A stretch of 52,932 nt of DNA from the IMG/VR virus record IMGVR_UViG_3300046170_000229, positions 1 to 52,932 of that record; one strand, written 5' to 3'. The position numbers and the translations under genes were made by a program. The notes under the pieces were generated by a model. That model had not been told where the DNA came from, ran no database searches, and saw nothing but the letters and a program-made list of their open reading frames with translations. Source of the DNA: a virus (taxonomy: Duplodnaviria; Caudoviricetes). This document shows positions 11,525 through 25,245 of the stretch, piece by piece (the first letter of the stretch is position 1; each line of letters starts with the position of its first letter).

Positions 11525-12401
11525 CGTTTTTATCCTCCTTTGGATTAACTAATTTTGTATACCAAAACCATCTAGGTGATTTTGCTTTTGATTGTTGTTG
11601 TGGAAGATATTGTAACTCTTCTCCCCAACAAGTTTTTTTATAAGAACAAAAAGAACAGACTGTGCTTAACACTCTGTTGCCTGTTGTTACTTTATTAAAT
11701 GTTTCAGGAGTATCCTCAAAACATCTTTCAAACTCTTTATCATTTACTAAAGCATCTATATTCTCTTCAGCAATTTTTATTGCTTTAACTTTATAATCTT
11801 CATTATAAGTAGGTGTTTCTACTATTTGCCATTCACCAGTAGATTTATTTATTACAATCCATCCACCAAAAGGTTTACCCGAAGAATCAGAATATAGAGA
11901 ACCTTGAACTACATATCCAAAGTTATCATCTTCTCTGACATTATTAAATCCTTTTGCAAATTTATTATCATACGCCCAAGGAGATGCACTTTTAATATCA
12001 TAGATTTTATTATCTATCTCAACATCATAAGTACCTTTAATCTTAACACCTGATAATTCATTATGAACTTCTTTCTGTTCTGATTGAATTTTAATTCCTG
12101 CAGCTTTCATAATACCTATTGCTGCCGCTTCAATTAAGTCTCCAAACAAAACTCTCATTTTAAAATTATAAGGGGGTGACTCTGATGAAGACTTACTTTT
12201 CTCCATTTGTAACTGGCATAAAGGTTTACCAATACTAGACATTCGTATAGAAAATTCTTTATTTCTTTCTTCTGTGAATTGTTTTCTAAATGCAGTTTTA
12301 CAATCCTCTCCAAACTGCTCAATGATATCTTCTGATATTTCAACCCGCTCCGTAGTGGAGCGGGATAATAGTTCTTGTATTTTTACTAAAAGTAAATGCA
12401 C
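11511..12401 (-). CDS. Cas4/RecB-like PD-(D/E)xK exonuclease
   Basis: RMSSIGKPLC; GTYD...IYDIKSAS; Y..Q...Y; C-terminal CSFCSYKKTC. Confidence 0.8.
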   Translation of the reverse strand: MHLLLVKIQELLSRSTTERVEISEDIIEQFGEDCKTAFRKQFTEERNKEFSIRMSSIGKPLCQLQMEKSKSSSESPPYNFKMRVLFGDLIEAAAIGIMKAAGIKIQSEQKEVHNELSGVKIKGTYDVEIDNKIYDIKSASPWAYDNKFAKGFNNVREDDNFGYVVQGSLYSDSSGKPFGGWIVINKSTGEWQIVETPTYNEDYKVKAIKIAEENIDALVNDKEFERCFEDTPETFNKVTTGNRVLSTVCSFCSYKKTCWGEELQYLPQQQSKAKSPRWFWYTKLVNPKEDKNDVKK

Positions 12402-12405
12402 TTAC

Positions 12406-13222
12406 TTAGTTAAGTTGGTCAATTACTTTTGCATCATCACCATCTGATTCTGCTTGAGTAGTAGACCTACTATGCTGAGTACTGACACTTTTATTCTCAG
12501 AATTAATTATAGTTAAGAAACTTTCTAAAGTTTTTTCATCATCTGTAGAAAAACTTAATTCCTTATCTTTATTAATTTTATAAGTAGTAACAAAGAAACG
12601 TATTGCACCTGCTTTTCTTCTCTCTGTGCCTAATGTCAAAGTATATTTAAACATTGGTTTACCTAGATTAGTTAAGCCTGTAAATGCTTCATTAACAATA
12701 TTATAATTAGTTCCTGTGTTTCTCCAAAGGACAGGGGAAGTTTTCGATATCTACATCTTCGCCTTTAGCATTTTTACCTTTAAAAGATACTGTACCATAA
12801 GTCATCTTATAGCATTTTATCTGCTTCTGAAGTTCTAGTTCAGCAGAGGTAAGATTAGCTTTTTGTGCTTCAGGAAGTTTGCCACATCGTGTGCCACCTG
12901 AAGTGTCAATAATATCCTCTTTCCAATTCCTAAAGATAACAGAACGAGAAGTATATTTTTTCTCAGTAGGATTGTAAGCCATATATTGATAAGCAGTGTA
13001 GAAAGGTCTAAATTCTACTGACTCACCATATATGTTTTGTTCTAGTTCTGGATGATAGATTTGATAGTGACCTGTTGGTAATCTATTACCTTCATCATCC
13101 TCTGCATCTCTGTTAATTTGTAATCGAGATAGCATGGGTCTGTTTGTATCAACAGTCTGTCCAATTGCTGCCATAATCTGAGCATCAGACATTCCTTTTA
13201 CTGATATTTCATTAGTCATCAT
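12406..13222 (-). CDS. Putative ssDNA-binding protein, split by a +1 frameshift at about 12734-12737
   Basis: Removing one base from the GGGG run joins ...ENFP to VLWRNTGTNYNIVNEAFTGLTNLGKPMFKY; lies between PolA and exonuclease; acidic tail. Confidence 0.65.
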
Positions 13223-13259
13223 TAATAATAACTCCTTATTATTTATAGTTGTGGATAAG

Positions 13260-15356
13260 TTACAGTTTTATTTCTGTCATGTCAAGCCAATCAGAGCCTA
13301 CTTTTATCTCTATATCTAGAGGTACATTAAAATCAATATTATACATTGATTTCATTGTGTTTTTTACCCCTGTAGTAGATTTAGCTAAGATATCTGACAT
13401 AACATTTTCTTCACCCGGATAGACATCTACAACAATACTGTCATGTACAGTATTAATTAATAGACTTTTTACCTTCTTTTGTTTCATTAACTCATAAGCA
13501 TTAATACAAGCTAAAGGAACAATGTCGGCAGTAGCAAAACCTTGAACAGGATAGTTTTTTATTTGGGTGGAATAATTAGAACTACCCCAAGGCATCCTTT
13601 TCGCATCGGGAAAAGAATATTGCCTACCTGTTGGTAAGGTAACTAGTTTGGTGGCAATCGCACTATACTCTAACTTATCGTGCCACTCTTTAATCTGTTT
13701 ATATTTAGTTAAAAATTCAGCGTAATATTTCTTTTCATCATCTGTACCACTAAAACCTCCATACAAAGGTTTGAAAGTATGAGCCTTAGCATCTTGTCTA
13801 GATACTCCTATGATATCAGCAGTGAATTGATGAACATCAACTCCATTTTTTATATCTTCCATACCTTGTTTATCCTGAGCAAGAAAGACTGCAGTTCTAA
13901 ATTCTAACTGTGCAAAGTCTACCTCCATAATCTTACCATTCTTAAATCTTGATTTCATTACTTTCCTAATAGGGAAAGTTTTAGCACGTGGTTGGTTTTG
14001 GAAATTAGGATTTCTACTAGACAATCTTCCTGTTGAAGTAGCAGTCTGCATAAAGCTAGGATGTAATATAGAGTTCCAACCTACAAAGTTTTGTATACCT
14101 TCAACAAAAGTAGATAAGTAAGTTTCTATAGCACTATACTTTGTAATAGAATCTACAAAATCAATTACTCCATTTTTACTATACTTAGAAATAGTCATTA
14201 AAGTTATTTTATCTGTTTTAAATCCTGTATTACAAGCTAGTCCTACTAACTTACTAGCAGTGTCTTTAGAATCTCTAGAAAAGTTTTCTACAATAGTTTT
14301 AAGGTTAACTTTAAATCCTGCTAATTCTTTTAACTGATGATATATTAAACCCTGACCATCACAAGTCTCACACTTACTTAAATTCTTATAGGGATTACCA
14401 TCAACTTTCATTTTCTGAACTTTACCATTGCCATAACAACTAGAACATCTTTCTGAACGAGTTTTATGAACAGGCTTAGTATACATTTTAACATACTTAT
14501 TAAAGTCTGCTATGGACATTCTAGGTCTTCTCTTAGGTTTATTAGTTTGTTTATTAACACCAATGTTAAAAACCTCAGCCCATTTCTTTTTATTAGTAAC
14601 TTTTAATCCATAGACTAGCCAAGAAAGTTGTTCACCACTACTAGGTTCTATGTGGGTATCTCCCATCATATCCCAAATAGTATCATCTATCTTTACTCGT
14701 AATCGTTTATGCTCTTTTTCAAATTCATCTCTAACTTCAGATAAAGTACTCTTATCAATATAAATACCATTCATCTCCATATTGGTTAATACTTTTGTAA
14801 ATTTGTTCATCATTTTAACTGTAGTTAATAAAGAAGAATTATGTTTCTTATTTAAATCTGATACCTGAGCATCAAAAAGCTGTCGGGTACACTCCACATC
14901 TCTTCTACCATAGAACTCAATATCTTTAGGAATAATATCTTTAAAAGTCATTCCCTGACTTCTATATGTATCAATAATTGAAGTAGCTTTATGTATTAAT
15001 CCTCTTCTTACACAACATTCTGCTAAAGATATTCTAGTTTTAACACCTCGATGTAAAACATATTCAGCTATCATAGTGTCATAAATAATACCAGTATATT
15101 TAAATCCACAAGAATATATCCATGACAAATCAAATTTTATATTATGACCTACAAGAATATCTGTTTTATTCAGTATATCTTGGACAATCTTTTTATTCTT
15201 TTTTAAATCAATATCAGGCAAGTCAGGATGCCAAAAAAATAAATACTCATTATCTATACCTAAACTTATTAATTTATTATCAGGATAGTAAGGAGTAGGG
15301 CTTCCTTTATAACCTTCTTCTGTTGTTTCCACATCAAATACTGTTATCTTTGTCAT
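13260..15356 (-). CDS. polA: Family A DNA polymerase with 3'-5' exonuclease and DnaJ-like zinc-finger insert
   Basis: DVET, GHNIKFD, TGRLSS, DFAQLEFR, RQDAKAHTFKPLYG, KNYPVQG, VHDSI; CSSCYGNG and CETCDGQG. Confidence 0.95.
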   Translation of the reverse strand: MTKITVFDVETTEEGYKGSPTPYYPDNKLISLGIDNEYLFFWHPDLPDIDLKKNKKIVQDILNKTDILVGHNIKFDLSWIYSCGFKYTGIIYDTMIAEYVLHRGVKTRISLAECCVRRGLIHKATSIIDTYRSQGMTFKDIIPKDIEFYGRRDVECTRQLFDAQVSDLNKKHNSSLLTTVKMMNKFTKVLTNMEMNGIYIDKSTLSEVRDEFEKEHKRLRVKIDDTIWDMMGDTHIEPSSGEQLSWLVYGLKVTNKKKWAEVFNIGVNKQTNKPKRRPRMSIADFNKYVKMYTKPVHKTRSERCSSCYGNGKVQKMKVDGNPYKNLSKCETCDGQGLIYHQLKELAGFKVNLKTIVENFSRDSKDTASKLVGLACNTGFKTDKITLMTISKYSKNGVIDFVDSITKYSAIETYLSTFVEGIQNFVGWNSILHPSFMQTATSTGRLSSRNPNFQNQPRAKTFPIRKVMKSRFKNGKIMEVDFAQLEFRTAVFLAQDKQGMEDIKNGVDVHQFTADIIGVSRQDAKAHTFKPLYGGFSGTDDEKKYYAEFLTKYKQIKEWHDKLEYSAIATKLVTLPTGRQYSFPDAKRMPWGSSNYSTQIKNYPVQGFATADIVPLACINAYELMKQKKVKSLLINTVHDSIVVDVYPGEENVMSDILAKSTTGVKNTMKSMYNIDFNVPLDIEIKVGSDWLDMTEIKL

Positions 15357-16588
15357 TCTATATACCTCGATTTCTCAGGCACTAGTATACTATTAACTAT
15401 ACCATGCCATCCATTTATTTTATTCTTTATAACATTTAAGTTTCGCAAAAAGTTTGGTGTATCACCATCTTGTTGGGCTTTACCAATACCAATAATTAAA
15501 TCAGCTTCGGCTGCCTTTCCTGTTCTACTATTCTCCATCATATCAAAAGACAAAACTGCTGAGCCTTCAGCTTCTGCATTTGCCTGAGAGACACCAATCA
15601 AAGCTATATTTCTTCTCTTAGCTATTTCTCTTGCACCTAAGTAGATTGCTCGTAATCTTTCATCACCTCTAGAGAAAGTTCCTTCTACATTTATTTTATC
15701 TAGTTGGTCAACAATAACAATATCAGGTTTATTATCTTCACAATACTTATCTAAAGATTCTAGTGACCAATCTACAGAATCATGGCAAACTATGTTGTCA
15801 CTAATCTTAGCCCACTCTTCTTTTGCTTCTTTCATACTGTCTTGTATATCAAGCTTATGCATATCAGTCCATGCAGATACCATTCTCATCTGTGTTCTAA
15901 CTGCGGGTTCTTCATTAATAAAACAATGAACCTTAGCACCTTGATGAGCAAAGCCTTCGTACCCGGCTACTAGACTAACCCAAAATGCAGTCTTACCTGT
16001 TTCAGGTCTAGCGAATATAACCATAAGATTACCTTCACCTACGCCATCAATTCTATCACCTAATGTTTTTATATTAAACTTCCATTTAGATGTAACTGAT
16101 ACTGCATCTAACATCTCACCAATATCTTTAGTAACAGGAGTTAGCCCATCTTCAGATTCTATTACGTCTTCATCAAATTCTTCCACTAATTTTTTAACAG
16201 TAGATAATGATTTACTTTTACCATTCCAAACACCATTAGCTTCTTCTATAACTTGTTTAGCATGTTCTAGCATACGTAAATTCTTTAACGTATCAGAAAC
16301 AATATCAGCATTATATTCTGTGTTATCATTACCTATGTTGTCTAGTATGGCTTCCATTTTCTGTCGATGAGCAGTAGTGGATGCAGGTTTGTAAATATTA
16401 AAATATGCATCTTTAACTTCTTCAACAGAAAGCTTTTGTATATTATTATGTTTTTTATAGGTATCTCCTATAACAGTGTATACCTCTGCTAAACCATTAG
16501 TAAAATTGTTCTTACTAATCCTTTTTCTATTCTCTTCAAAAAAGTCACGGTTTAGACAGAACTTTATTATTCTATTCTCAAGTGACAT
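15353..16588 (-). CDS. SF4 (DnaB/T7 gp4-like) replicative helicase
   Basis: Walker A ARPETGKT; IVIVDQLD; VSQA; KAAEADLIIG; KNK. Confidence 0.9.
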   Translation of the reverse strand: MSLENRIIKFCLNRDFFEENRKRISKNNFTNGLAEVYTVIGDTYKKHNNIQKLSVEEVKDAYFNIYKPASTTAHRQKMEAILDNIGNDNTEYNADIVSDTLKNLRMLEHAKQVIEEANGVWNGKSKSLSTVKKLVEEFDEDVIESEDGLTPVTKDIGEMLDAVSVTSKWKFNIKTLGDRIDGVGEGNLMVIFARPETGKTAFWVSLVAGYEGFAHQGAKVHCFINEEPAVRTQMRMVSAWTDMHKLDIQDSMKEAKEEWAKISDNIVCHDSVDWSLESLDKYCEDNKPDIVIVDQLDKINVEGTFSRGDERLRAIYLGAREIAKRRNIALIGVSQANAEAEGSAVLSFDMMENSRTGKAAEADLIIGIGKAQQDGDTPNFLRNLNVIKNKINGWHGIVNSILVPEKSRYIE

Positions 16589-17381
16589 TAAATAACTCCT
16601 TTATCCTTGTGGGGTCTAAATATTTTAAGTCTTCTTCTAAGACTTTTACTTCAGTATCAATAAGATACCTCAAGCCTTTTGATAAATCAAATGCCTTCTG
16701 CGTTGCGTCTCTATCTAAAGCTATAATTACTTTCTTAAAGTTTTTAGATAAGTAAATTGCATACTCTTCTTTCATAGTTGTTCCTAATAAGGCAACTCCT
16801 GTGTAGATAGAACTAATAGCACAAGCAGAAGCACAGTCTTCTACAATAACTGCAGTGTCGCTTTTACCACAAGTAAAAGGAATAATGTTTTTATTGTAGT
16901 TGAACCACTTAGGCATGTTAAGGGGATTAAGACTTCTACCTACTGCAGAAACTACATCACCCTCATCTTTAACTACAAAGACTGCTCTATCTTTACGGGG
17001 GTCAAAGTATATTGATGCTATCCCTTCAAGGTATGCCGGGTAACAATTATTTTTCTTAACATAAGACAAACATTTTTCACTAGATTGTATGTTAGTAAAA
17101 TGTTTTGGGATTGTCCAAGCTTTTACTTTCGGTTCAGCCGAGCCTTTTGATGACGATAGTTCCAAGAACTTGGTAACATCATCAGGAGATAATGCTCGTT
17201 CAGTAGTACCACCAATCTTACAAGATGCATGATAGCATCCCCAATTAATTTTAAAGTCTTCTGTGTTTATATAGAATGTATTTTTGTTAAGACAAAAAGG
17301 ACAATCCATTCTAACTCGGGTGTTAGAAGGTATCTCTAACTGTTTGATATATTCTAATTGATGTTTCTTTGTGATGTACAT
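16578..17381 (-). CDS. DNA primase (Zn ribbon + TOPRIM)
   Basis: CPFC...CYHASC; VIVED, ALLGT, ALDRD; AGAAAGG SD places the start at ATG 17381. Confidence 0.88.
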   Translation of the reverse strand: MYITKKHQLEYIKQLEIPSNTRVRMDCPFCLNKNTFYINTEDFKINWGCYHASCKIGGTTERALSPDDVTKFLELSSSKGSAEPKVKAWTIPKHFTNIQSSEKCLSYVKKNNCYPAYLEGIASIYFDPRKDRAVFVVKDEGDVVSAVGRSLNPLNMPKWFNYNKNIIPFTCGKSDTAVIVEDCASACAISSIYTGVALLGTTMKEEYAIYLSKNFKKVIIALDRDATQKAFDLSKGLRYLIDTEVKVLEEDLKYLDPTRIKELFNVT

Positions 17382-17393
17382 TTTTACCTTTCT

Positions 17394-17411
17394 ACTTAAC
17401 ACGTGTTAAGT
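17394..17411. repeat. Palindrome copy 1, ACTTAACACGTGTTAAGT
   Basis: Perfect 18-bp palindrome abutting the primase SD. Confidence 0.95.
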
Positions 17412-17434
17412 TATTTTCTCATTTCTTCAGAGCC

Positions 17435-17466
17435 AAAAAAAGGGGCAGTCATTTCTGACCACCCCT
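17435..17466 (-). terminator. Intrinsic terminator
   Basis: AGGGGTGGTCA-GAAA-TGACTGCCCCT plus T run on the minus strand. Confidence 0.85.
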
Positions 17467-17510
17467 CTCAGCCACAAAGAAAGAAAGTATATGAGTGAAT
17501 ATACTCTTTC

Positions 17511-17538
17511 TTTATAACTTTTTTTTCTTATATTGCAA
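17511..17538 (-). promoter_or_regulatory. Candidate sigma70 promoter TTGCAA-N16-TATAAA
   Basis: Near-consensus boxes; same 16-bp spacer as the other promoters. Confidence 0.5.
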
Positions 17539-17673
17539 GTGCTTTAAATCTTTATCTAAATGTTTTTTTATCAAAGGAAATTGAAAATCTGTTCGATACT
17601 CCCCTTGATGGTATCTTAACAATGACCACAATCTAGGATTAAATTTTTCTAGATATGCTTCAGTATTATTCAT
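17512..17673 (-). CDS. Small hypothetical protein (53 aa, not in ORF track)
   Basis: AGAAAGGAG SD right after palindrome copy 2; MNNTEAYLEKFNPRLWSLLRYHQGEY... Confidence 0.65.
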   Translation of the reverse strand: MNNTEAYLEKFNPRLWSLLRYHQGEYRTDFQFPLIKKHLDKDLKHLQYKKKKL

Positions 17674-17687
17674 GATTACTCCTTTCT

Positions 17688-17705
17688 ACTTAACACGTGT
17701 TATCT
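17688..17705. repeat. Palindrome copy 2 (hybrid arms), ACTTAACACGTGTTATCT
   Basis: 12-bp perfect core TAACACGTGTTA at 17691-17702. Confidence 0.9.
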
Positions 17706-18122
17706 TCAAAAAGTTTTTTGAGGATGTGTACAATGACAAACTGTTATATGTACATTAGTGGTCATGAATCCACTCACGTCAACATCCTCAAAAAATCTTG
17801 TTGGTAGTTTAGCGTCCAAGTCAGGTTCCTGAGGCTTTGCGTCCTTTTGGCTATATCTTGGTTTCTGCATATAATTTTTCAGCAGACCTGCCACTAAACT
17901 AATTTACGTGGGGCAGACTGTACAATCTACCCCAAGGTACTTTGCGTTGCGTTTGAGTTTATACTCGGCTACGAACCCAAGAATACGAAATGGCTTACGC
18001 ACGAGTACCGACAGTGACCATAGACTTACCTATCATTTTGGTAGCTAATTCAAAACTCATCAAGCTTAGTGTAATCGGTTAAAAGAAACATTCAATCGTC
18101 ATCAAATGTTTCTCTAAACCTT
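17706..18122 (-). ncRNA. Candidate large structured ncRNA (about 420 nt), family unknown
   Basis: GC-richer than flanks; nested helices, including 14-bp 17714-27/17782-95, 11-bp 17909-34 with G-U pairs, 17936-47/17997-18009, 9-bp 18084-92/18105-13. Confidence 0.55.
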
Positions 18123-18138
18123 CTTAACACGTGTTAAG
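18123..18138. repeat. Palindrome copy 3, CTTAACACGTGTTAAG
   Basis: Perfect 16-bp palindrome. Confidence 0.95.
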
Positions 18139-18139
18139 T

Positions 18140-18172
18140 AAAAAGGGGTGTCAGATATAGACTAACACCCCT
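18140..18172 (-). terminator. Intrinsic terminator
   Basis: AGGGGTGTTAG..CTGACACCCCT plus TTTT, ending 1 nt from the palindrome. Confidence 0.8.
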
Positions 18173-18222
18173 GTCGGCTTAATTAACAAACAACTCCCGA
18201 AAGGATTTCGGAGTCACTTATA

Positions 18223-18250
18223 ATAATAAACTAATCCCCTGTTAAGTCAA
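18223..18250 (-). promoter_or_regulatory. Candidate sigma70 promoter TTGACT-N16-TATTAT
   Basis: 5/6 and 5/6 consensus; spacer begins TAACAGGG as in the 21674-21701 promoter. Confidence 0.6.
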
Positions 18251-18507
18251 ATCGTAACAGGCTGATTATCTTTTCCTATAACAGTAACATCACCTAATGC
18301 TTCTATCCAAACTTTAGCACCACAGGATAAAGGTTTGTCAGGACTATAGACAATTCTTGTAGCACCATTGCAAACAACATCAGAGCCATAGTAATTATGC
18401 TTGTATGTTTTAACTGTAATAACATCTTTGATGTCATCAGGATGTTTGGCATTGTGTCGAATGTTATGTTGGTTAACATGAATACGTTTAATCAAATGAC
18501 TCTCCAT
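18247..18507 (-). CDS. Conserved phage hypothetical protein
   Basis: RIHVNQH...VITVK...VYSPDKPLSCGAKVWIE; start likely MESH. Confidence 0.75.
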   Translation of the reverse strand: MESHLIKRIHVNQHNIRHNAKHPDDIKDVITVKTYKHNYYGSDVVCNGATRIVYSPDKPLSCGAKVWIEALGDVTVIGKDNQPVTI

Positions 18508-18679
18508 TCTTTTGTAGTACTTCACTAACATCAACTATTGTTCTGTCTATACCTTTTTCATACAAAGGACTAGAATGACCATCCATTAAATAATTATTCT
18601 GTGCCTCTTCTACATCTTTTGCTTTTATGTAATACTTTTTTGTTTTAGTTACCTCAACAACAATTTCATACATAGGCAT
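18488..18679 (-). CDS. Small hypothetical protein
   Basis: AAAGGA SD; TAATG coupling; YEIVVEVT..YYIKAKDVEEA. Confidence 0.7.
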   Translation of the reverse strand: MPMYEIVVEVTKTKKYYIKAKDVEEAQNNYLMDGHSSPLYEKGIDRTIVDVSEVLQKNGESFD

Positions 18680-19014
18680 TAGTTTGTTCCTTTCATGTCA
18701 ACAGTACCTACAAACATTAATCTGTAGTCATCTGTGTTCTCTACTTCAATATGATAAATCATACCCTTAGCTTTGATATATTTAATCGTATTGTAATTAA
18801 TATTTCTATAACCTTTCTTCTGCATATCATAAGCAACTAAAAAATTATTAGGGTTGGTATATTGTCTACCGCCCTTTTGATTTTTCTTTACACCTAGTCT
18901 GAATACACCAGTTCTAAATGTTCCGTCTTTCTTGTAGAAACCTACAGAGAAAGTATTCTGTGTACCTACCATTTCTTTAATAGCTTCAGGCACAGTTAGT
19001 TTTGACATTAACAT
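18679..19014 (-). CDS. SH3/Sm-like beta-barrel protein (WYL_2/DUF2693-like)
   Basis: FSVGFYKKDGTFR...YDMQKKGYRNIN; AGAAAGGA SD. Confidence 0.65.
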   Translation of the reverse strand: MLMSKLTVPEAIKEMVGTQNTFSVGFYKKDGTFRTGVFRLGVKKNQKGGRQYTNPNNFLVAYDMQKKGYRNINYNTIKYIKAKGMIYHIEVENTDDYRLMFVGTVDMKGTN

Positions 19015-19029
19015 ATCGTTCCTTTCTAT

Positions 19030-19047
19030 AGATAACACGTGTTATCT
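19030..19047. repeat. Palindrome copy 4 (variant), AGATAACACGTGTTATCT
   Basis: Perfect 18-bp palindrome with both outer arms changed symmetrically. Confidence 0.92.
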
Positions 19048-19202
19048 CTATGGTTTTAATATCCAATAAGTTATTATTATAGATATAAATATAATCCATT
19101 CTACATCCATAAATTTTTTACGATTTCGCTTTACATATTTTAAAATCCATGATAGAAGGGGTTACCACCCCCGAGGGTATATATACCCCTTTATTATTAT
19201 TC

Positions 19203-19230
19203 ATAATACCATACCCAAAGGGTAAATCAA
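19203..19230 (-). promoter_or_regulatory. Candidate promoter TTGATT-N16-TATTAT with extended -10 TG
   Basis: Same TTGATT -35 and 16-bp spacer as 20604-31 and 21674-701. Confidence 0.5.
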
Positions 19231-19245
19231 ATTTATTACTTTTCA

Positions 19246-19422
19246 TTATTTAGTTTCCTTAGTGTTACTATAATACGTATTAGTTAAAATGTAATTAACT
19301 CTAATACGTTCTCTTTTTCTTTCTCTTTCTTGTTTACTCATTTGAGCCTTACTAAGATTGTATCCTAATAAGGTACTTTCTTTTTTTTCTTTGCGACCTC
19401 TGATTTCAACATCAGATATCAT
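19246..19422 (-). CDS. Small basic hypothetical protein (58 aa, not in ORF track)
   Basis: GAGGT SD; MISDVEIRGRKEKKESTLLGYNLSK... Confidence 0.55.
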   Translation of the reverse strand: MISDVEIRGRKEKKESTLLGYNLSKAQMSKQERERKRERIRVNYILTNTYYSNTKETK

Positions 19423-19624
19423 TGCTTACCTCATCTAAATCATCTTCAACCATAACATGAATGTCTAGTTTATGTTTGTCATAATCTAATCCATATTCAT
19501 CTAACAACATTCTCTTTGCTAAATACTCAGCGTCAGAGAATATATCTCTACTATTACCTGCTACTTTTACTTTGTAGCGAATAGTAAAAGATACTTCTAA
19601 GGGATAATCTTTTTTAAATCCCAT
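19412..19624 (-). CDS. Small hypothetical protein
   Basis: GAGGAG SD; TAATG coupling. Confidence 0.7.
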   Translation of the reverse strand: MGFKKDYPLEVSFTIRYKVKVAGNSRDIFSDAEYLAKRMLLDEYGLDYDKHKLDIHVMVEDDLDEVSNDI

Positions 19625-19794
19625 TACCTACTCCTCTCTTCAAATATTCTATGTACTACATCATAGAACATAGCATCTATAGTTTCTATACCTAAGTCAT
19701 ATTTTTCTACTAGATTAGAAAAGTCAGCCATAGACATACCTTCTAATTCATCTTTAATACTTTCTAGTACTTCTTCATTCTGTTGATTACTCAT
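19624..19794 (-). CDS. Small acidic protein (56 aa, not in ORF track)
   Basis: MSNQQNEEVLESIKDELEGMSMADFSNLVEKYDLG...; fills the gap with overlaps at both ends. Confidence 0.7.
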   Translation of the reverse strand: MSNQQNEEVLESIKDELEGMSMADFSNLVEKYDLGIETIDAMFYDVVHRIFEERSR

Positions 19795-20005
19795 CTACAA
19801 ATAACCCACCTTTGCTTATTCCAAATACTAAATAGTCCTTCATGTATTCCCCATATCTTGAGGATTCATAATCATCATGAGTTATTTGTATTCTTACCGT
19901 CCAATACTTATCTGCATCAACAGATAAAGATTTTTGAATTTGAACACCACTTACATGATGATTTTTAGGTATAACTTTTTTAATATCACGCATTGTTATC
20001 TTCAT
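19787..20005 (-). CDS. Small hypothetical protein
   Basis: GAAAGGA upstream; tight operon packing. Confidence 0.6.
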   Translation of the reverse strand: MKITMRDIKKVIPKNHHVSGVQIQKSLSVDADKYWTVRIQITHDDYESSRYGEYMKDYLVFGISKGGLFVDE

Positions 20006-20171
20006 TCCTTTCTAATAGTGTTGCGTATTGATAATCAACTTCATCTATTTCTAAGTCACCACTAATATCTAGACCACCTTTTTCCTGTAGTATTTTTCTA
20101 GCTTCATCTTCATTTTGTGCTTGTATTTCATAAGTGTATGCACAAGGTACTGCAAATTTAAATGTTGTCAT
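19986..20171 (-). CDS. Small acidic hypothetical protein
   Basis: YEIQAQNEDEA motif resembling 18488..18679. Confidence 0.65.
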   Translation of the reverse strand: MTTFKFAVPCAYTYEIQAQNEDEARKILQEKGGLDISGDLEIDEVDYQYATLLERNEDNNA

Positions 20172-20376
20172 CTTTCTGTTCCTTTTTTAATTGGGTGATT
20201 AACTTTGATAACTCATTATTTGTACCAATAAGATTGTTTACAACATTATTAATATGTTCTTTCTCATTCCTATGAAAATGAGGATGGTGTTGCATCCACG
20301 CATAAGCAATGATATCTGACAAATAATCTTGTGTATCTCTCATTACTTTTCTTGCTTCTTTTAATGTATCAATCAT
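20158..20376 (-). CDS. Small hypothetical protein
   Basis: GAGG SD; ATGA overlap. Confidence 0.65.
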   Translation of the reverse strand: MIDTLKEARKVMRDTQDYLSDIIAYAWMQHHPHFHRNEKEHINNVVNNLIGTNNELSKLITQLKKEQKDDNI

Positions 20377-20564
20377 TTTCCAACCTCAACAAATAATTTA
20401 CCACCTAAATAATTTAAATTATTACTCATGATGTATTCTTTTGCTCTATCAGCTACATCACCCCCTTCAGGAATACAAAAAGGGATTGTAGCTTTACCTA
20501 GTAATTCGTTATCCAAAGCGATAACGTAAATATAACGTACTGTTTTTTCTGATTTTTTAGACAT
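20373..20564 (-). CDS. Small hypothetical protein
   Basis: AGAAAGG SD directly after palindrome copy 5. Confidence 0.7.
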   Translation of the reverse strand: MSKKSEKTVRYIYVIALDNELLGKATIPFCIPEGGDVADRAKEYIMSNNLNYLGGKLFVEVGK

Positions 20565-20576
20565 AATTACCTTTCT

Positions 20577-20592
20577 CTTAACACGTGTTAAG
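20577..20592. repeat. Palindrome copy 5, CTTAACACGTGTTAAG
   Basis: Perfect 16 bp, between promoter and SD. Confidence 0.95.
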
Positions 20593-20603
20593 TATAAGGG
20601 TGC

Positions 20604-20631
20604 ATTATAAAATACACCCTTGCTAAATCAA
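20604..20631 (-). promoter_or_regulatory. Candidate promoter TTGATT-N16-TATAAT
   Basis: Perfect -10; overlapped by inverted repeat 20596-20621. Confidence 0.65.
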
Positions 20632-20633
20632 AT

Positions 20634-21533
20634 TTAAGCTACTTGTAATAAGTTATTCCACTCATTACTACCCAAAGCTTTAGTGATAGATGCTTGTCTA
20701 GTCATCTGATACTTTGGTGTTCTAGCTTTACCATTGAAGTTGTGAGTAGCCCAATGAGTCATGGTGTTGTATAAAGACCATACTGTATTACCCCACCTAT
20801 CCTTCTCTCTTGAGAATAAGTGATTTAAAGTTTCTAATCTTTTCTGATTAACTTTATTGGCAGTATGTTTTGAGCCTCTACACATAGTGTTCTTAAAGAA
20901 GGTACTAGCATAATCTAGTCGAGGTAATTCTTTAACACCCCATGTAGACATTCTATTGGCTTGAAGCAGATAGTTATCTACTAATCTTCCAATATCATTA
21001 ACTAATTCCAAGTCTTGTAAGTTCTTTGTATGCTTACCATAATGTTTGACAAATGCTTTACCATTAAACACTTGTAAGTTGGCACAATAACCACCATAGC
21101 CACCAAAGACAAAGTGAAATGCCATTTTCATATTGTAAGAATTGAAAATATCAAATCTTAAATACTGAAAGTCATCCCCATTCTTTGTAGGAATATGCAC
21201 TTTGTATTGGTCATCTTTACAAACAATAGTTCTCTTTACTAATGCACCACTATCAAACACTTGGTCAGTGACATCAATGTTATTGAACTCACGATAAGAG
21301 TTATCTAGTTCTCTATTGACTGTTTGATACAAGTCTTTGTGATTAAGTAGCTTGTAATTCTTACCTACTATGGCAATTGTTTTCTTTTCATCAGTCCTGA
21401 ATACTGCTCTACCTACTTCTTCAGGTACAGTTCTTACACCTGTATCAGGTCTGTATGTTTGTATTGGTAGTAAGGTCACAGGAAAATCAAATTTCTCTGT
21501 GAGTAGTTTTATCTTTGCTTCGTTGCTTAACAT
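20634..21533 (-). CDS. DUF932/DUF945-family protein
   Basis: VGKNYKLLNH; FNSYN...CANLQ; HTKN; TVWSLYNTMTHWATH; SD places the start at 21533. Confidence 0.8.
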   Translation of the reverse strand: MLSNEAKIKLLTEKFDFPVTLLPIQTYRPDTGVRTVPEEVGRAVFRTDEKKTIAIVGKNYKLLNHKDLYQTVNRELDNSYREFNNIDVTDQVFDSGALVKRTIVCKDDQYKVHIPTKNGDDFQYLRFDIFNSYNMKMAFHFVFGGYGGYCANLQVFNGKAFVKHYGKHTKNLQDLELVNDIGRLVDNYLLQANRMSTWGVKELPRLDYASTFFKNTMCRGSKHTANKVNQKRLETLNHLFSREKDRWGNTVWSLYNTMTHWATHNFNGKARTPKYQMTRQASITKALGSNEWNNLLQVA

Positions 21534-21556
21534 ATATTTACCTTTCTTTGTTAAGA

Positions 21557-21576
21557 TACTTAACACGTGTTAAGTA
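21557..21576. repeat. Palindrome copy 6, TACTTAACACGTGTTAAGTA
   Basis: Perfect 20 bp. Confidence 0.95.
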
Positions 21577-21583
21577 ATTTATT

Positions 21584-21610
21584 AAAGTGGGGAGTTGGTA
21601 GACCCCCCAC
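21584..21610 (-). terminator. Probable intrinsic terminator
   Basis: GTGGGGGGT-CTACCA-ACTCCCCAC-TTT (short U tract). Confidence 0.6.
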
Positions 21611-21673
21611 AACTTATATACACAAACTAATTTCACAAGAGTACTCTCTTGCTACGATTAAATTTGTATTTTA

Positions 21674-21701
21674 ATATTATTGAAAAACCCTGTTAAATCA
21701 A
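21674..21701 (-). promoter_or_regulatory. Candidate promoter TTGATT-N16-TAATAT
   Basis: Shares TTGA(C/T)TTAACAGGG with 18223-50. Confidence 0.5.
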
Positions 21702-21806
21702 GGGGATATTACAATAAATTCAACACTTTTGCATACCTGTTATGTTAGATAAACAATAGTGTCTTCCACCACCAACACTATAATAGTAATTAATGGGGGT
21801 GAAACT

Positions 21807-21989
21807 ATGAATGGCGTATTTACAAATACTAAAAAATCTATTAATTTTTTCCTTAACTGTTTCAGTTTTTTTGATAATTACGAAGACCATGTCAAAAGAT
21901 TTGTTGAAGTCGAATTCAAACCAAATGACAGGCAGTGGGCTTATGAACAGGTCAAAGCTAGAAACATTAGAAAAAAATCTAATAGTTAA
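21807..21989 (+). CDS. Small counter-oriented gene (60 aa) within the early arm
   Basis: GGGGTG SD-like; own TATAAT at 21779-84; converges on 21986..22165. Confidence 0.6.
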   Translation: MNGVFTNTKKSINFFLNCFSFFDNYEDHVKRFVEVEFKPNDRQWAYEQVKARNIRKKSNS

Positions 21990-22165
21990 GAGTTATTAGA
22001 CTTCATGTATTCCTTATTATTTTTATCGGTAATACGTTGGTCTAATAATAATCTAGGCTCGTGTGTTCCATGATAATTAACATTAGATTTAAGAAATACT
22101 TTCTCACCACTACTGTTGATTACATGGCAACCACACCTATAATATAATACTTTTTTATTTTTCAT
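21986..22165 (-). CDS. Small hypothetical protein (59 aa, not in ORF track)
   Basis: AGGAG SD; MKNKKVLYYRCGCHVINSSGEKVF... Confidence 0.6.
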   Translation of the reverse strand: MKNKKVLYYRCGCHVINSSGEKVFLKSNVNYHGTHEPRLLLDQRITDKNNKEYMKSNNS

Positions 22166-22174
22166 AATACTCTC

Positions 22175-22864
22175 CTAATGTGTAATAAATAATACACTCT
22201 TTACTTCCTTATTCCAACAAAGGGTACACGTACCACAACTAGCAGTCTTGCCTAATTGTTCGGGGCAAGTGATACCTTCATCTGTTAACTCTTTACTATT
22301 GGCAGATAACTTATCTTCCACCATATCTGAGAAACGTACAGAAAATCTATCCCACATCTTATCTCTCAAATTCTTTATAGCTTTACCTATATTCCTTTCT
22401 TCTTTCCAACCAATACCCACATTACGAATATCATGATACTGTCTATTCCAATGGTGATGAGTATAGCCATAGCAAGACAGATTAGGAAAAGTCAGTAATG
22501 CCATTCTCCAAAAGTCCACATACTCTACACTAGGAAAGTCACCACCAACATGAAGTCGAACAAGAAAACCTTGTTGATGTTTCTTGTCTAGCTTCATCAG
22601 TTCTTTCCATAGCCTTGTCATCAAAGATTTAGAATACTTAAATCGATGAGCAAAAGGCATGTTATCGTCATAGCAATTCTCCCAATGATAACAACTACTT
22701 GGGCAATTCTTTCTTACTTCTAAATGTAATGTGTAAATAGGCTTACCTTTGTGTCTACCTTTGGTCACCCACTTACCAAGTTTTTTATTGGTGCTACGTT
22801 TTAACAAATCAAACTTGTAGTTCGTTGCACCAAAGACGTTTCGTATATACTTACAACCATTCAT
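22175..22864 (-). CDS. GP88-like (radical-SAM-related, Cys-rich) phage protein
   Basis: TNKKLGK; CPSSCYHWENCY; VRLHVGGDF; YGYT; CPEQ....SCGTCTLCW. Confidence 0.75.
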   Translation of the reverse strand: MNGCKYIRNVFGATNYKFDLLKRSTNKKLGKWVTKGRHKGKPIYTLHLEVRKNCPSSCYHWENCYDDNMPFAHRFKYSKSLMTRLWKELMKLDKKHQQGFLVRLHVGGDFPSVEYVDFWRMALLTFPNLSCYGYTHHHWNRQYHDIRNVGIGWKEERNIGKAIKNLRDKMWDRFSVRFSDMVEDKLSANSKELTDEGITCPEQLGKTASCGTCTLCWNKEVKSVLFITH

Positions 22865-22894
22865 AATAGTTCCTTTCATTGTTATAATAGTATT

Positions 22895-22912
22895 ACTTAA
22901 CACGTGTTAAGT
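22895..22912. repeat. Palindrome copy 7, ACTTAACACGTGTTAAGT
   Basis: Perfect 18 bp, 4 nt after the upstream stop. Confidence 0.95.
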
Positions 22913-22916
22913 CACG

Positions 22917-23423
22917 TCATCTATCTATCTTGTAATAGAAATAGTTTTCTAAATCCTCAAAGAACTGGCATATTGCAAACCAATTCCTAGACAAATAGCT
23001 TCTGTTATCCCATTCTATTTCTGTTCTGCACCCACAAGACAGAGCAAAATATCTTCTTACCTTGTCAATTATACTTCTCTCTTGATATCGGATACCGTTC
23101 CACCACCAAATGTCCTGTATTTCTTTCTGTAACATAGCTGTCCACAACTCAATACTTTCCTTGTCATTTTTTTCTTTAGCTATATCAAGACACTTTTGTC
23201 TATCAGACAACTGTTTTTCTATGGTGTCATGACGAACTTTTACCTTATCTGTTTTTGGCATTTTTGTATCGTCACTGCGATTTAAGTATGTTTTCTGTGC
23301 ATCTTTTAAATCACCTGTCATGGTTATAGCACTCCAAACATTCTCATAATTAAATACATCTTTATGTATCCATAGTCTTATTTTCATAAAGACATAATTT
23401 AAAAAAGTATAAACGTACTTCAT
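22917..23423 (-). CDS. Hypothetical protein
   Basis: 168 aa, Trp-rich, ATGA overlap. Confidence 0.7.
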   Translation of the reverse strand: MKYVYTFLNYVFMKIRLWIHKDVFNYENVWSAITMTGDLKDAQKTYLNRSDDTKMPKTDKVKVRHDTIEKQLSDRQKCLDIAKEKNDKESIELWTAMLQKEIQDIWWWNGIRYQERSIIDKVRRYFALSCGCRTEIEWDNRSYLSRNWFAICQFFEDLENYFYYKIDR

Positions 23424-23677
23424 GCTACTTTTCCTTCCTTGTTTGATACTTTGAATATAAATATGCTTAAAGGTAGAAATCCTGTTTCAAACATACTACC
23501 TTCGAGCATAAGTCCATTATCCATTTTAGATACCAATTCTTTAATATCTTTCTTATTTAATGTAAAAGGTAAAAAACCTACCTTGTTGTAAGTTTCATCA
23601 TAGCTATGAACAAACATAACTTTCTTTGCTCTTCTAAGATGTTCTTGCTTAATAGGTGTCCATTTTAATTTAGTCAT
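23420..23677 (-). CDS. Hypothetical protein
   Basis: Coupled ORF. Confidence 0.65.
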   Translation of the reverse strand: MTKLKWTPIKQEHLRRAKKVMFVHSYDETYNKVGFLPFTLNKKDIKELVSKMDNGLMLEGSMFETGFLPLSIFIFKVSNKEGKVA

Positions 23678-23885
23678 CTAATGCCACCTTTGTTATCTCA
23701 TAACCTCTCCAACGAGGGTGGCTACCTGCTGACCAAAACTCAAGGCTAGACTCAAATTCATCTTGTGCCTCAAAGAAATCTTTTGCACTTATTCTTTCAA
23801 TAATTCTACCAAATGAATCATAGTTCTCATCATCAGGTTTCTGTTTACTCTTAATGCTATATTTAGCTTCACATACAAATATCAT
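23670..23885 (-). CDS. Hypothetical protein
   Basis: AGAAAGGA SD. Confidence 0.7.
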   Translation of the reverse strand: MIFVCEAKYSIKSKQKPDDENYDSFGRIIERISAKDFFEAQDEFESSLEFWSAGSHPRWRGYEITKVALDD

Positions 23886-23923
23886 GTTAATTCCTTTCTT
23901 TGTTTGTGTTGTTATTGTTAATC

Positions 23924-23941
23924 ACTTAACACGTGTTAAGT
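23924..23941. repeat. Palindrome copy 8, ACTTAACACGTGTTAAGT
   Basis: Perfect 18 bp. Confidence 0.95.
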
Positions 23942-23974
23942 AAGGGAGGTTCAAAGGAGGGATAGAGAAATATA

Positions 23975-23988
23975 TAACACGTGTTAAG
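23975..23988. repeat. Palindrome copy 9, TAACACGTGTTAAG
   Basis: 12-bp perfect core, right arm canonical. Confidence 0.9.
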
Positions 23989-24236
23989 CTAAGCAGTCAT
24001 TGTGTTGGAGATAAATACACTAATCGTGCCTAGCATTATAATATCAAAGGTAGTTTCTTAAGTCCAGTCGGATACAGGCTATAAACGTTGATAAATAAGG
24101 ATTGTAGAGGTTTGGAAATGTTTGGAAGTTTTGCCACGATATTCAGAGCAGGTTCGTGAGCAGTTTTGGTTCGTTCCGTTCGTTCGGGTTCAGTCGATAG
24201 TTCCAAAGGAACGATAGTTCCACAGAAATTTTAGAC

Positions 24237-24268
24237 AAAAAAAAACCCCCCAGATTTCTCTGAGGGGT
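24237..24268 (-). terminator. Strong intrinsic terminator
   Basis: ACCCCTCAGA-GAAA-TCTGGGGGGT plus long T run, 19 nt after the ORF stop. Confidence 0.9.
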
Positions 24269-24287
24269 CTTAAGATTTATTGATTAA

Positions 24288-25019
24288 TTATCTGAAGTTT
24301 ACAGTCTTAGGCATTTCGACAATACCTTTCATTTGAGGATTTGGCTCTTCTTCATTTTCTGCAGTTCTTGAATCTACCACACTTTCCAAAGTGTTTAGTA
24401 AATCTGTTAAATCCTCTAAGTCTAGATTTTGTAAAAACTGAGGATTATCTTTTAAATAGTCTAAAGACTCCCTAGCTTTTGATAGAGTGGCTACTTCATT
24501 TTTCTTGGTGTCTCTATTTCTAGTCTTGTTTTTCTTATCCATATCTTTGACAGATAATACATTTTTCTTTGCATCTAAAATTTGAGCAGTTTTTTCATCA
24601 ATGCTAAATTTAGGATTTTCAAAAAGAATTATTGAAGCGTCAATTATTCTTTTCATTGCCATAACAAAAGAGTGTAATTGCTTAGACTTATCATAACCAG
24701 TGAAATGGTAAAGAGCATTTCTTAACTGGTCTTTTGATAGTACTAGATTATTTTTCTTAGCCTCAGTAATCATTTGAACAGTTAATTTAAGTAATGCGAT
24801 TTTTTGAGATACTGATTTTTTTTCCGCATTTTCAAAAGTCTTTATTAATCCCTTACCTACTGAAAAAATTTCAGTCAAAGTCTTTTCAGAATAATAATTT
24901 TTCTGAAGTTCTTTAGGCAATTTTAAAGCTTTTGCCTTTACTGATTTTTTAGCCACTTTTGAAGCATGGCTAGAAGTTGATTTCTTTACAGTCTTTTTAG
25001 TGTTTTTCTTGTTTGTCAT
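24288..25019 (-). CDS. First early gene, monocistronic; Lys-rich N-terminus, function unknown
   Basis: GAAAGGA SD; own terminator; 243 aa. Confidence 0.8.
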   Translation of the reverse strand: MTNKKNTKKTVKKSTSSHASKVAKKSVKAKALKLPKELQKNYYSEKTLTEIFSVGKGLIKTFENAEKKSVSQKIALLKLTVQMITEAKKNNLVLSKDQLRNALYHFTGYDKSKQLHSFVMAMKRIIDASIILFENPKFSIDEKTAQILDAKKNVLSVKDMDKKNKTRNRDTKKNEVATLSKARESLDYLKDNPQFLQNLDLEDLTDLLNTLESVVDSRTAENEEEPNPQMKGIVEMPKTVNFR

Positions 25020-25056
25020 TTTTATATCCTTTCAAAGATATTTGTTAATTAAGAAT

Positions 25057-25084
25057 ATTATGCACTTTTGGGATGTTAATACAA
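25057..25084 (-). promoter_or_regulatory. Candidate promoter TTGTAT-N16-CATAAT
   Basis: Just upstream of the SD of 24288..25019. Confidence 0.45.
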
Positions 25085-25127
25085 ATAAATAATAAGGGTA
25101 ATTTAAGGGCTATAAACAAGGATAATA

Positions 25128-25145
25128 ACTTAACACGTGTTAAGT
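25128..25145. repeat. Palindrome copy 10, ACTTAACACGTGTTAAGT
   Basis: Perfect 18 bp. Confidence 0.95.
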
Positions 25146-25229
25146 AAATCCATATTGAAAGTACATAAGTTATATTTTTTCTCTATCCCTATTAACTCCC
25201 AGTTATAAAACTACTTAAAATATTATTAG

Positions 25230-25245
25230 CTTAACACGTGTTAAG
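25230..25245. repeat. Palindrome copy 11, CTTAACACGTGTTAAG
   Basis: Perfect 16 bp. Confidence 0.95.

Follow-up and report, generated by a model that had tools for sequence, protein, structure and literature searches.

What is encoded by a stretch of phage DNA that is richer in GC than its surroundings, has no recognizable gene and lies in the early region directly ahead of the primase, helicase and polymerase genes? The question is raised by positions 17708–18216 of the IMG/VR virus record IMGVR_UViG_3300046170_000229, which was analyzed over its full length of 52,932 nucleotides (nt; 52.9 kb, estimated completeness 94%) and is called the window in the following. An earlier note, made from the letters of the window alone, had proposed a large structured noncoding RNA (ncRNA) of no known family, read from the minus strand and bracketed by two palindromes at 17706–18122. 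The minus-strand ncRNA and its lack of a known family are borne out by our analysis, whereas the secondary structure suggested for its core is not. We conclude that the locus is probably the gene for a modular, highly structured ncRNA of a HMO-2011-type pelagiphage-like virus, built around a conserved core unit, K (17937–18006). That a real structured ncRNA with an H-type pseudoknot is present appears highly probable, and we are confident of its identity as an ncRNA gene and of its fold, a confidence that does not extend to its mechanism.

The region stands out by composition and by folding. Counted over 200-nt segments, the GC content between 17700 and 18099 is 0.38–0.445 compared to 0.275–0.325 just below and about 0.30 above 18500, as the earlier note had seen, and its value of 0.389 is the highest among the window's gaps of at least 200 nt that are free of open reading frames (ORFs). 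Folding energies were compared with those of dinucleotide shuffles: the minus strand of 17700–18140 reaches −126.8 kcal/mol against −98.5 ± 5.5 kcal/mol (z −5.15, none of 100 shuffles as good) and the plus strand −114.3 kcal/mol (z −4.16). Both strands thus beat their shuffles, the minus strand by more. This agrees with the strand that had been predicted from G-U pairs. Several changes between relatives turn G-U into G-C or A-U on the minus strand, where also all genes around the candidate RNA are located. The perfect stem of 14 base pairs (bp) at 17714–17727/17782–17795 and the hairpins at 17910–17933 and 18084–18114 are present as described before.

In order to follow the RNA beyond the window, relatives were fetched via the primase and via short patterns from the conserved part, and chance matches were set aside by their missing the rest of the core or by a covariance model. 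The model recognizes K in 40 loci at 80–109 bits and in 11 more at 36–39 bits, to which six further loci were added by eye; the carriers are 34 IMG/VR contigs besides the window record and 25 of 38 metagenome stretches. Two loci (L015 and L025; loci are numbered with an L), the other 13 metagenome stretches and many pattern loci (51 of the 62 from one later search, in which 11 pass the model, and 31 of the 46 from another) were discarded as chance. More distant primase relatives comprise 68 loci without K (best match E-value 0.67). The K-bearing relatives form seven sequence types, A to G, and by clustering of neighbouring genes they belong to two unrelated phage contexts. In the first group K accompanies HMO-2011-like replication modules, with primase, helicase, family-A DNA polymerase (PolA) and WYL_2 as neighbours and the RNA always upstream of and co-oriented with the primase gene; the second group has small-terminase neighbours. 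Genes for a protein of 56–62 amino acids (aa) and another of 120–139 aa are shared by the neighbourhoods of both groups, and neither protein gave a lead to a partner. Close relatives keep the RNA better than its surroundings, with 97.7% identity over 348 nt in L017 and 99.0% over 203 nt in L018 compared to 79.6–86.9% for the flanking genes.

These relatives also allowed the fold of the core to be examined. The three core helices drawn in the earlier note, including GGTACT/AGTACC and TGCGT/ACGCA, had to be given up: the complementary letters exist, but among 18 distinct alignment rows no pair is changed on both sides, 406 of 500 shuffles do equally well and the outer three pairs break in 13–15 of the 18 sequences. 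Covariation was found for a different stem, Px, and for a helix, PK, that joins loop and tail. Judged from the aligned sequences, K is shown to be an H-type pseudoknot composed of the 7-bp Px and the 8-bp PK, whose strands follow each other in the order S1-5', S2-5', S1-3', S2-3' and which both carry compensatory changes. Five of the seven Px pairs are changed on both sides (18 distinct rows, including a weak match that is spurious), a count that none of 500 shuffles reaches, and 96% of the cells are paired compared to 83% in the shuffles and 18–37% when the partner strand is slid. Type C is one column out of register in the model alignment; in the right register all of its Px pairs form (by eye).

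PK was revealed by tail changes in types D to G and was counted on plain MAFFT alignments that had been fitted to no structure. With 13 rows 97.1% of the cells are paired compared to 88.2% in shuffles, none of 500 reaching this value, and with types F and G added (16 rows) the figure is 96.1%, with slid controls at 26–50%; over both alignments these controls stay within 26–61%. Two of the eight pairs are changed on both sides in the 16 rows: at the first, A-U (10 rows), U-A (4) and G-C (2) are all seen, and the second has U-A in 12 rows and A-U in the other 4. Positions first taken as free linker bases turned out to be bulges of 0–2 nt within PK. The loops L1 and L2 and the end of L3 (17945–17954) hardly vary in 16 representatives, and K as a whole has about 35 near-invariant unpaired bases. 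The stem of types D, F and G is long and has interruptions (by eye). Thus, covariation, which the earlier note had named as a check, is missing from the helices proposed there and present in two others.

The same alignments speak against a coding function. No ORF led by a Shine–Dalgarno sequence was found in the region, as stated before, and the neighbouring genes all have strong ribosome-binding sites whereas neither of the two candidate frames has one. A 32-aa frame over the core (17904–18002) is shifted by a 1-nt deletion in L043 (type A2) and interrupted by stops in types B and C; across the core no frame is open in all eight sequences checked. Its variable sites are mostly non-synonymous and about 20 other codons are without synonymous change, so that neither a frame open in all relatives nor a synonymous bias, by which we would recognize a protein-coding core, is seen. 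The ORF at 17706–17894, in which the earlier note would have regarded conserved codon structure as evidence against an RNA, is not conserved: its distal 118 nt are missing from the nearest relatives L003 and L004. A Pfam search of the ORFs gave no match for a candidate small protein.

Less of the earlier description holds for the borders of the RNA. Both bracketing palindromes exist, but the perfect 14-nt palindrome has 12 copies in the window at up to two mismatches (8 exact; 12043–25244) where 0.38 would be expected, and L018 and L047 lack the upstream one. Eleven minus-strand copies each lie 5–40 nt upstream of either a ribosome-binding site or the candidate RNA, often immediately behind a terminator hairpin, and the outermost bases change symmetrically in relatives. 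Pfam searches with nine larger early or structural ORFs revealed neither an RNA polymerase nor a regulator to which the palindromes could be attributed. The palindrome does not mark the edge of the RNA; it is a general signal of the early region and a candidate for a phage-specific promoter, an operator or an RNA-level site. Further upstream, a sigma-70-like site is present in ten of ten same-type relatives with enough upstream sequence, L022 being too short to judge, and in L018 and L047 there is no palindrome between this site and the RNA body. The transcript may thus begin near 18216 and not at the palindrome, and the transcription unit may extend over 17708–18216, which moves the former boundary upstream.

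Other types resemble such a unit: in types C, A19, B and G, judged by eye, sigma-70-like hexamers precede it and an intrinsic terminator closes it. At about 150 nt the version in L054 is the smallest, consisting of a hairpin, K, a second hairpin and the terminator. In the window the 14-bp stem, which the terminator scan does not report, is followed one base behind by a T-run. RNA libraries had also been suggested as a check, and 19 RNA-Seq runs of seven studies are listed as carrying the core, four of which were examined. Five Logan contigs of 151–254 nt from these four runs, which belong to four studies, match 17814–18112 without a differing letter and show neither strand nor ends. Their ends fall at points where relatives differ. 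No contig of the four runs was found elsewhere in 16000–20000, a range in which uncovered stretches carry no weight. The features of the locus and of its surroundings are listed in Table 1.

Table 1: Features of the locus and its neighbourhood in 5' to 3' direction of the minus strand; coordinates of the RNA parts were taken by counting on the printed sequence.
Feature	Positions	Strand	Remarks
WYL_2 protein (Sm-like SH3 fold)	18679–19038	minus	among small ORFs beyond the candidate RNA
Sigma-70-like promoter site	18223–18250	minus	10 of 12 consensus positions, 16-nt spacer; putative start near 18216
Small leader hairpin	18194–18213	minus	hairpins of other sequence at the same place in relatives (by eye)
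GC-rich hairpin with T-run, terminator-like	18140–18172	minus	terminator scan; kept with different letters in L006
14-nt palindrome copy, putative early-gene signal	18124–18137	minus	one of 12 copies
Hairpin H1	18077–18120	minus	core 18084–18114; kept in 7 of 7 sequences
Insertion domain	18007–18076	minus	window subgroup only; absent from L006, L018 and types B–G
Px 5' strand	17999–18006	minus	bulged base 18001
Loop L1	17987–17998	minus	11 positions identical in 15 of 16 representatives (types A–G); one change in L240
PK 5' strand	17978–17986	minus	17981 bulged or mismatched
Loop L2	17970–17977	minus	near-invariant
Px 3' strand	17963–17969	minus	
Loop L3	17945–17962	minus	A/C-rich; last 10 bases invariant; same box in type H leaders without L1 and L2
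PK 3' strand	17937–17944	minus	
Hairpin H2	17910–17933	minus	hairpin there in most types, at least 9 different sequences (by eye)
3' domain	17806–17900	minus	predicted fold; closed by a 9-bp long-range helix, 17892–17900 with 17806–17814
Terminator-like cassette	17708–17795	minus	14-bp stem around two hairpins, then T-run; sequence and fold
Second palindrome copy	17690–17703	minus	immediately upstream of the 53-aa ORF's ribosome-binding site
53-aa ORF	17512–17673	minus	between primase and candidate RNA
Toprim primase	16578–17402	minus	
DnaB-like helicase		minus	among the early replication genes near the candidate RNA
PolA	13260–15356	minus	DnaJ-type CXXCXGXG zinc segment between exonuclease and polymerase domains

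Outside of K the parts differ in how far relatives bear them out. For H1, comparison of the window type with the L022 type shows two pairs changed on both sides. H2 has four such pairs within the subgroup and is missing from L156 and L178. The helices of the insertion domain show only G-U to G-C or A-U changes, and one of the closing pairs of the 3' domain, U-G in the window, is U-A in L003, L017 and L047. The terminator-like cassette is absent from L003, L004, L017 and L018 and present in L022 and L045. In L018 and L047 the terminator-like hairpin upstream of H1 has no T-run and continues directly into the RNA body.

The RNA seems to be assembled from exchangeable pieces. The window version contains H1, the insertion domain of its subgroup, K, H2, the 3' domain of its subgroup and the terminator-like cassette. 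Three second-group phages with near-identical flanks have zero, one or two modules between the hairpin downstream of K and the terminator, and a module placed before K in one type can stand after it in another. Among the relatives without K, 27 of the 30 examined have an ORF-free, GC-richer gap of at least 180 nt within 2.5 kb upstream of the primase gene, and several of these gaps have promoter-like hexamers at their start and a terminator at their end. Taken together with the gain and loss of modules, this suggests that a long, cassette-built ncRNA gene ahead of the primase is general in this phage group and that K is one of its cassettes.

One further module, X, again has a pseudoknot-like arrangement: the loop of a short hairpin is paired to a segment located beyond a variable inserted hairpin and an A-run. 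A model of X detects 43 copies, all on the strand of the primase gene, in 39 of the 98 sources (L080, L082, L085, L087, L096, L097, L110, L112, L113, L135 and others), and 24 of the 68 relatives without K have it. The long-range helix of X is 99.5% paired across inserts of very different length. X matches no Rfam family and is not found in the window at E-values up to 0.01. More recurring structured modules occur in the primase gaps without K (L092, L108, L110, L082, L097 and L143), one of them about 90 nt long with a closing helix of 9–10 bp, and to our knowledge they match nothing described. In an additional type, H, a messenger RNA (mRNA) leader of about 150 nt has only the 3' box of K, meaning the end of L3 and the PK 3' strand, followed by a hairpin and the start codon; its 5' part differs and has a small covarying hairpin (L219, L220, L223, L224, L235, L236, L241, L245 and L256). 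The box may have a role of its own, as it occurs there alone. Behind the RNA terminator of L028, L039, L054 and L064, about 110–300 nt past the core, and also in L220, L223 and L236, we observed an AT-rich tract accompanied by two sets of direct repeats, one with three units of about 30 nt and the other with two units of about 26 nt. These repeats are iteron-like and may mark a replication origin of the second phage group.

The carrier phage had been assigned to the HMO-2011 type, and this placement holds, as PolA of the window has its best isolate matches in Pelagibacter phage HTVC033P (54% identity, the closest isolate) and HMO-2011 (38%). Its PolA also has the DnaJ-type zinc insert, which we take to be a hallmark of HMO-2011-type phages. 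In the gap between the 53-aa ORF and the primase gene (17440–17500) a long AT-rich inverted repeat is followed by a GC hairpin with a T-run, and both are invariant in four of four aligned relatives while the adjoining ORFs vary. A WYL_2 gene is located near the candidate RNA in 26 loci of three types (also L020, 1577–2047). Its co-occurrence with the RNA says little because WYL_2 belongs to a syntenic block. In 17 loci (L005 at about 560–1045, L022, L024 and others) the RNA is separated from the following gene by an extra ORF of 161–162 aa, which the window lacks. The region beside the RNA is a hot spot for insertions.

As expected from the earlier note, no known RNA family, including transfer RNA (tRNA), transfer-messenger RNA (tmRNA) and introns, could be assigned at gathering threshold or at lax E-values. 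Rfam 15 (4227 models) gave no match in the whole window at gathering threshold, and for 17400–18300 at E-values up to 10 only matches driven by terminators or AT content with 16–23 bits, where the thresholds are 45–115. The core region alone (17900–18030) had none at E-values up to 10, and 15 related loci had none apart from one driven by a terminator. ARAGORN found no tRNA or tmRNA gene in the window or in 39 K-bearing loci. A group I or II intron does not fit because the RNA lies between genes and has no Rfam intron match. Blastn searches with 851 nt and with the 91-nt core against 50,697 GenBank phage records gave no match, and HTVC033P has no gap ahead of its primase gene. In 185,579 bacterial species genomes a 19-nt pattern occurs in three stretches, all lacking the rest of the core, and we conclude that at the stringency of this pattern there is no prophage or host copy. 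A full-text literature search returned no relevant work on HMO-2011 noncoding RNA or pelagiphage small RNA, and the motif strings matched only primers. Several resemblances that came to mind were dropped for want of a model match: a c-di-GMP-I-like box in the 3' domain and tail, the T-arm-like or D-arm-like look of K and module X (the T-arm-like hairpin is also without covariation), a preQ1-I-like topology of module X and an HDV-like nested fold.

We therefore rate the RNA as a new family within the broad kind of orphan structured phage RNAs, as no named family fits; it is set apart by an unusual construction from cassettes and a well-defined pseudoknot. GOLLD and ROOL are long, multi-domain structured orphan RNAs without ORF that are often carried by phages. 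The present RNA is likewise highly structured, multi-domain, ORF-free and phage-carried, and differs in having no Rfam match and no adjacent tRNA genes (none in the window and none in 39 loci), in being shorter (about 150–600 nt) and in consisting of exchangeable cassettes. IMES RNAs are abundant orphan RNAs of marine metatranscriptomes and derive from uncultured marine sequence. Our RNA shares its exclusive origin from such sequence and its occurrence in marine RNA libraries with them, but Rfam, IMES included, gives no match and its carriers have been identified as HMO-2011-type phages and a second phage group. In the early operons of HK022 (put) and lambda (nut) a structured RNA lies early in the transcription unit and is followed by terminators and then by replication genes. 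The same layout, on which alone the comparison is based, is found here with terminators and replication genes behind the RNA, but put consists of two stem-loops and nut of a box and a hairpin, whereas K is a pseudoknot and occurs also as a separately terminated gene. Large 'ornate' RNAs including GOLLD and ROOL are the subject of a preprint (10.1101/2024.12.08.627333). According to another publication (PMC10690425, 2023), mining of intergenic regions of IMG/VR 3.0 yielded 8,495 novel unnamed RNA candidates of 29–151 nt. This catalogue uses the same data source as our work and may include pieces of the present RNA.

Some observations weigh against a separate pseudoknotted ncRNA gene. That K is nearly identical across phages could be due in part to recent horizontal spread and not to selection, and relatedness inflates the shuffle tests. 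The compensatory changes in PK come from two or three lineages only (types D/E and F/G), PK contains one non-pair in type B, Px a C-A mismatch in L040, and PK of the window needs a bulge at 17981 or has one mismatch there. The insertion domain and the 3' domain of the window rest on few sequences; the inner helices of the latter are unsupported and one predicted hairpin is broken in L005 (by eye). The terminator-like hairpin upstream of H1 could stop transcripts that start at the sigma-70-like site, and DNA can occur in RNA libraries. Moreover, in about half of the types K is located in an mRNA leader and not in a separate gene, which would fit a cis role as well.

Concerning the function, we propose that the RNA would be made from its own promoter and accumulate as a stable molecule, acting via the invariant pocket of its pseudoknot on a binding partner that is conserved across hosts. 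Such a partner might be a protein of the host or phage core machinery or a small ligand, with the RNA serving as aptamer or decoy. About 35 invariant unpaired bases kept across phage groups and probably across different hosts point to a partner that is itself conserved. This binding or decoy mechanism in particular is put forward tentatively. Regulation by long base pairing is unlikely, as the best duplex of the RNA tail elsewhere in the window (−18 to −20.5 kcal/mol) equals that of shuffled tails and the tail is mostly engaged in the pseudoknot. A wider and rather speculative idea is that K, X and at least two more modules represent new functional RNA classes traded as cassettes, which might be catalytic or might bind a small signalling molecule or a protein of defence or host takeover.

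A catalytic K, perhaps along with companion modules, would process early transcripts by self-cleavage and so free stable pieces or define mRNA ends. Small self-cleaving ribozymes such as twister, pistol and hatchet are pseudoknotted motifs with invariant unpaired bases that stand side by side without a fixed gene, and their classes cluster with each other in phage-like DNA. K resembles them in being a small pseudoknot in which about 35 unpaired bases are near-invariant and the outer stems vary freely; it is tied to no single downstream gene family and is placed beside other conserved modules in permuted order. However, the core alone has no Rfam ribozyme match even at E-values up to 10, three RNA-library contigs run uncut across all of K and no conserved base marks an obvious cleavage site ahead of the stem, which makes self-cleavage unlikely.

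We would place at a similarly low level a cis-acting leader element that works on the RNA polymerase or ribosome passing over it and so times the replication genes behind the terminators by processive antitermination, attenuation or translational control. K is always upstream of and co-oriented with the next genes, the window has three terminator-like hairpins between the sigma-70-like site and the primase gene, and in types A20, D, F and some of E, as well as in type H with only the 3' box of K, the element is found 30–150 nt before a start codon and no terminator intervenes. The invariance across hosts would also be explained if the conserved partner were, for example, RNA polymerase. However, the distance from K to the terminator or start codon varies by whole cassettes, which is hard to square with the competing helices of an expression platform; the downstream genes differ between types, no Rfam antiterminator matches, and behind the terminator of types B, C and G there is a promoter-like site (by eye). 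A riboswitch is not supported, as the downstream genes are inconsistent, several types appear to be terminated separately and cassettes stand before the next terminator.

Still less probable is a part of the replication origin, in which the transcript would prime or activate DNA synthesis or the hairpins would be single-stranded DNA signals for the primase. In five HMO-2011-like types (A20, B, D, G and that of the window) the RNA is found shortly before the primase gene, which is in line with this, as are the GC-richer gaps kept at this place by the 27 relatives without K, and the iteron-like repeats with the AT-rich tract in the second phage group add a little. G-T wobble is also tolerated in folded single-stranded DNA. 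On the other hand, promoter and terminator signals bound the unit in relatives, RNA-library contigs fall on the RNA, K occurs in mRNA leaders far from the primase gene (types F and H), a primer needs no invariant pseudoknot loops and the closest cultured phage has no such gap.

That the region is no functional unit at all and merely a patchwork of terminators, promoters and decayed gene remnants which folds well through its hairpins is very improbable: several hairpins are indeed terminator-like and the region is a mosaic with insertions and deletions between relatives, but an identity of 98–99% compared to 80–87% in the flanks, the recurrence in unrelated phage contexts and two covarying helices with invariant loops speak against it. 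The least credible explanation, a small protein from the 32-aa frame or the 62-aa ORF at 17706–17894, is nearly excluded: both frames are open in the window and the core frame in several type A relatives, yet ribosome-binding sites, an intact core frame in L043 and types B and C, the distal part of the 62-aa ORF in L003 and L004 and any Pfam match are all lacking.

In summary, the preferred reading of a modular ncRNA gene with a pseudoknotted core concerns phages that are among the commonest viruses of seawater and whose early regions are almost wholly unannotated, and the matches of K come from many uncultured ocean phages. The RNA is testable, as its pseudoknot is defined, about 35 unpaired bases are invariant and the seven natural types can serve as ready-made compensatory mutants, and the covariance model can be used for the annotation of marine viromes and metatranscriptomes. 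If the core serves replication or antitermination, it would mark a control point of the replication module. If several of the modules are indeed new functional RNA classes, they would form an RNA-based accessory or counter-defence 'island' in early transcripts, for which no precedent has been described among phages of SAR11-like hosts. Binding of a host factor, self-cleavage or ligand sensing by the core would each mean a new RNA class and a new layer of phage–host interaction in the most abundant marine bacteria.

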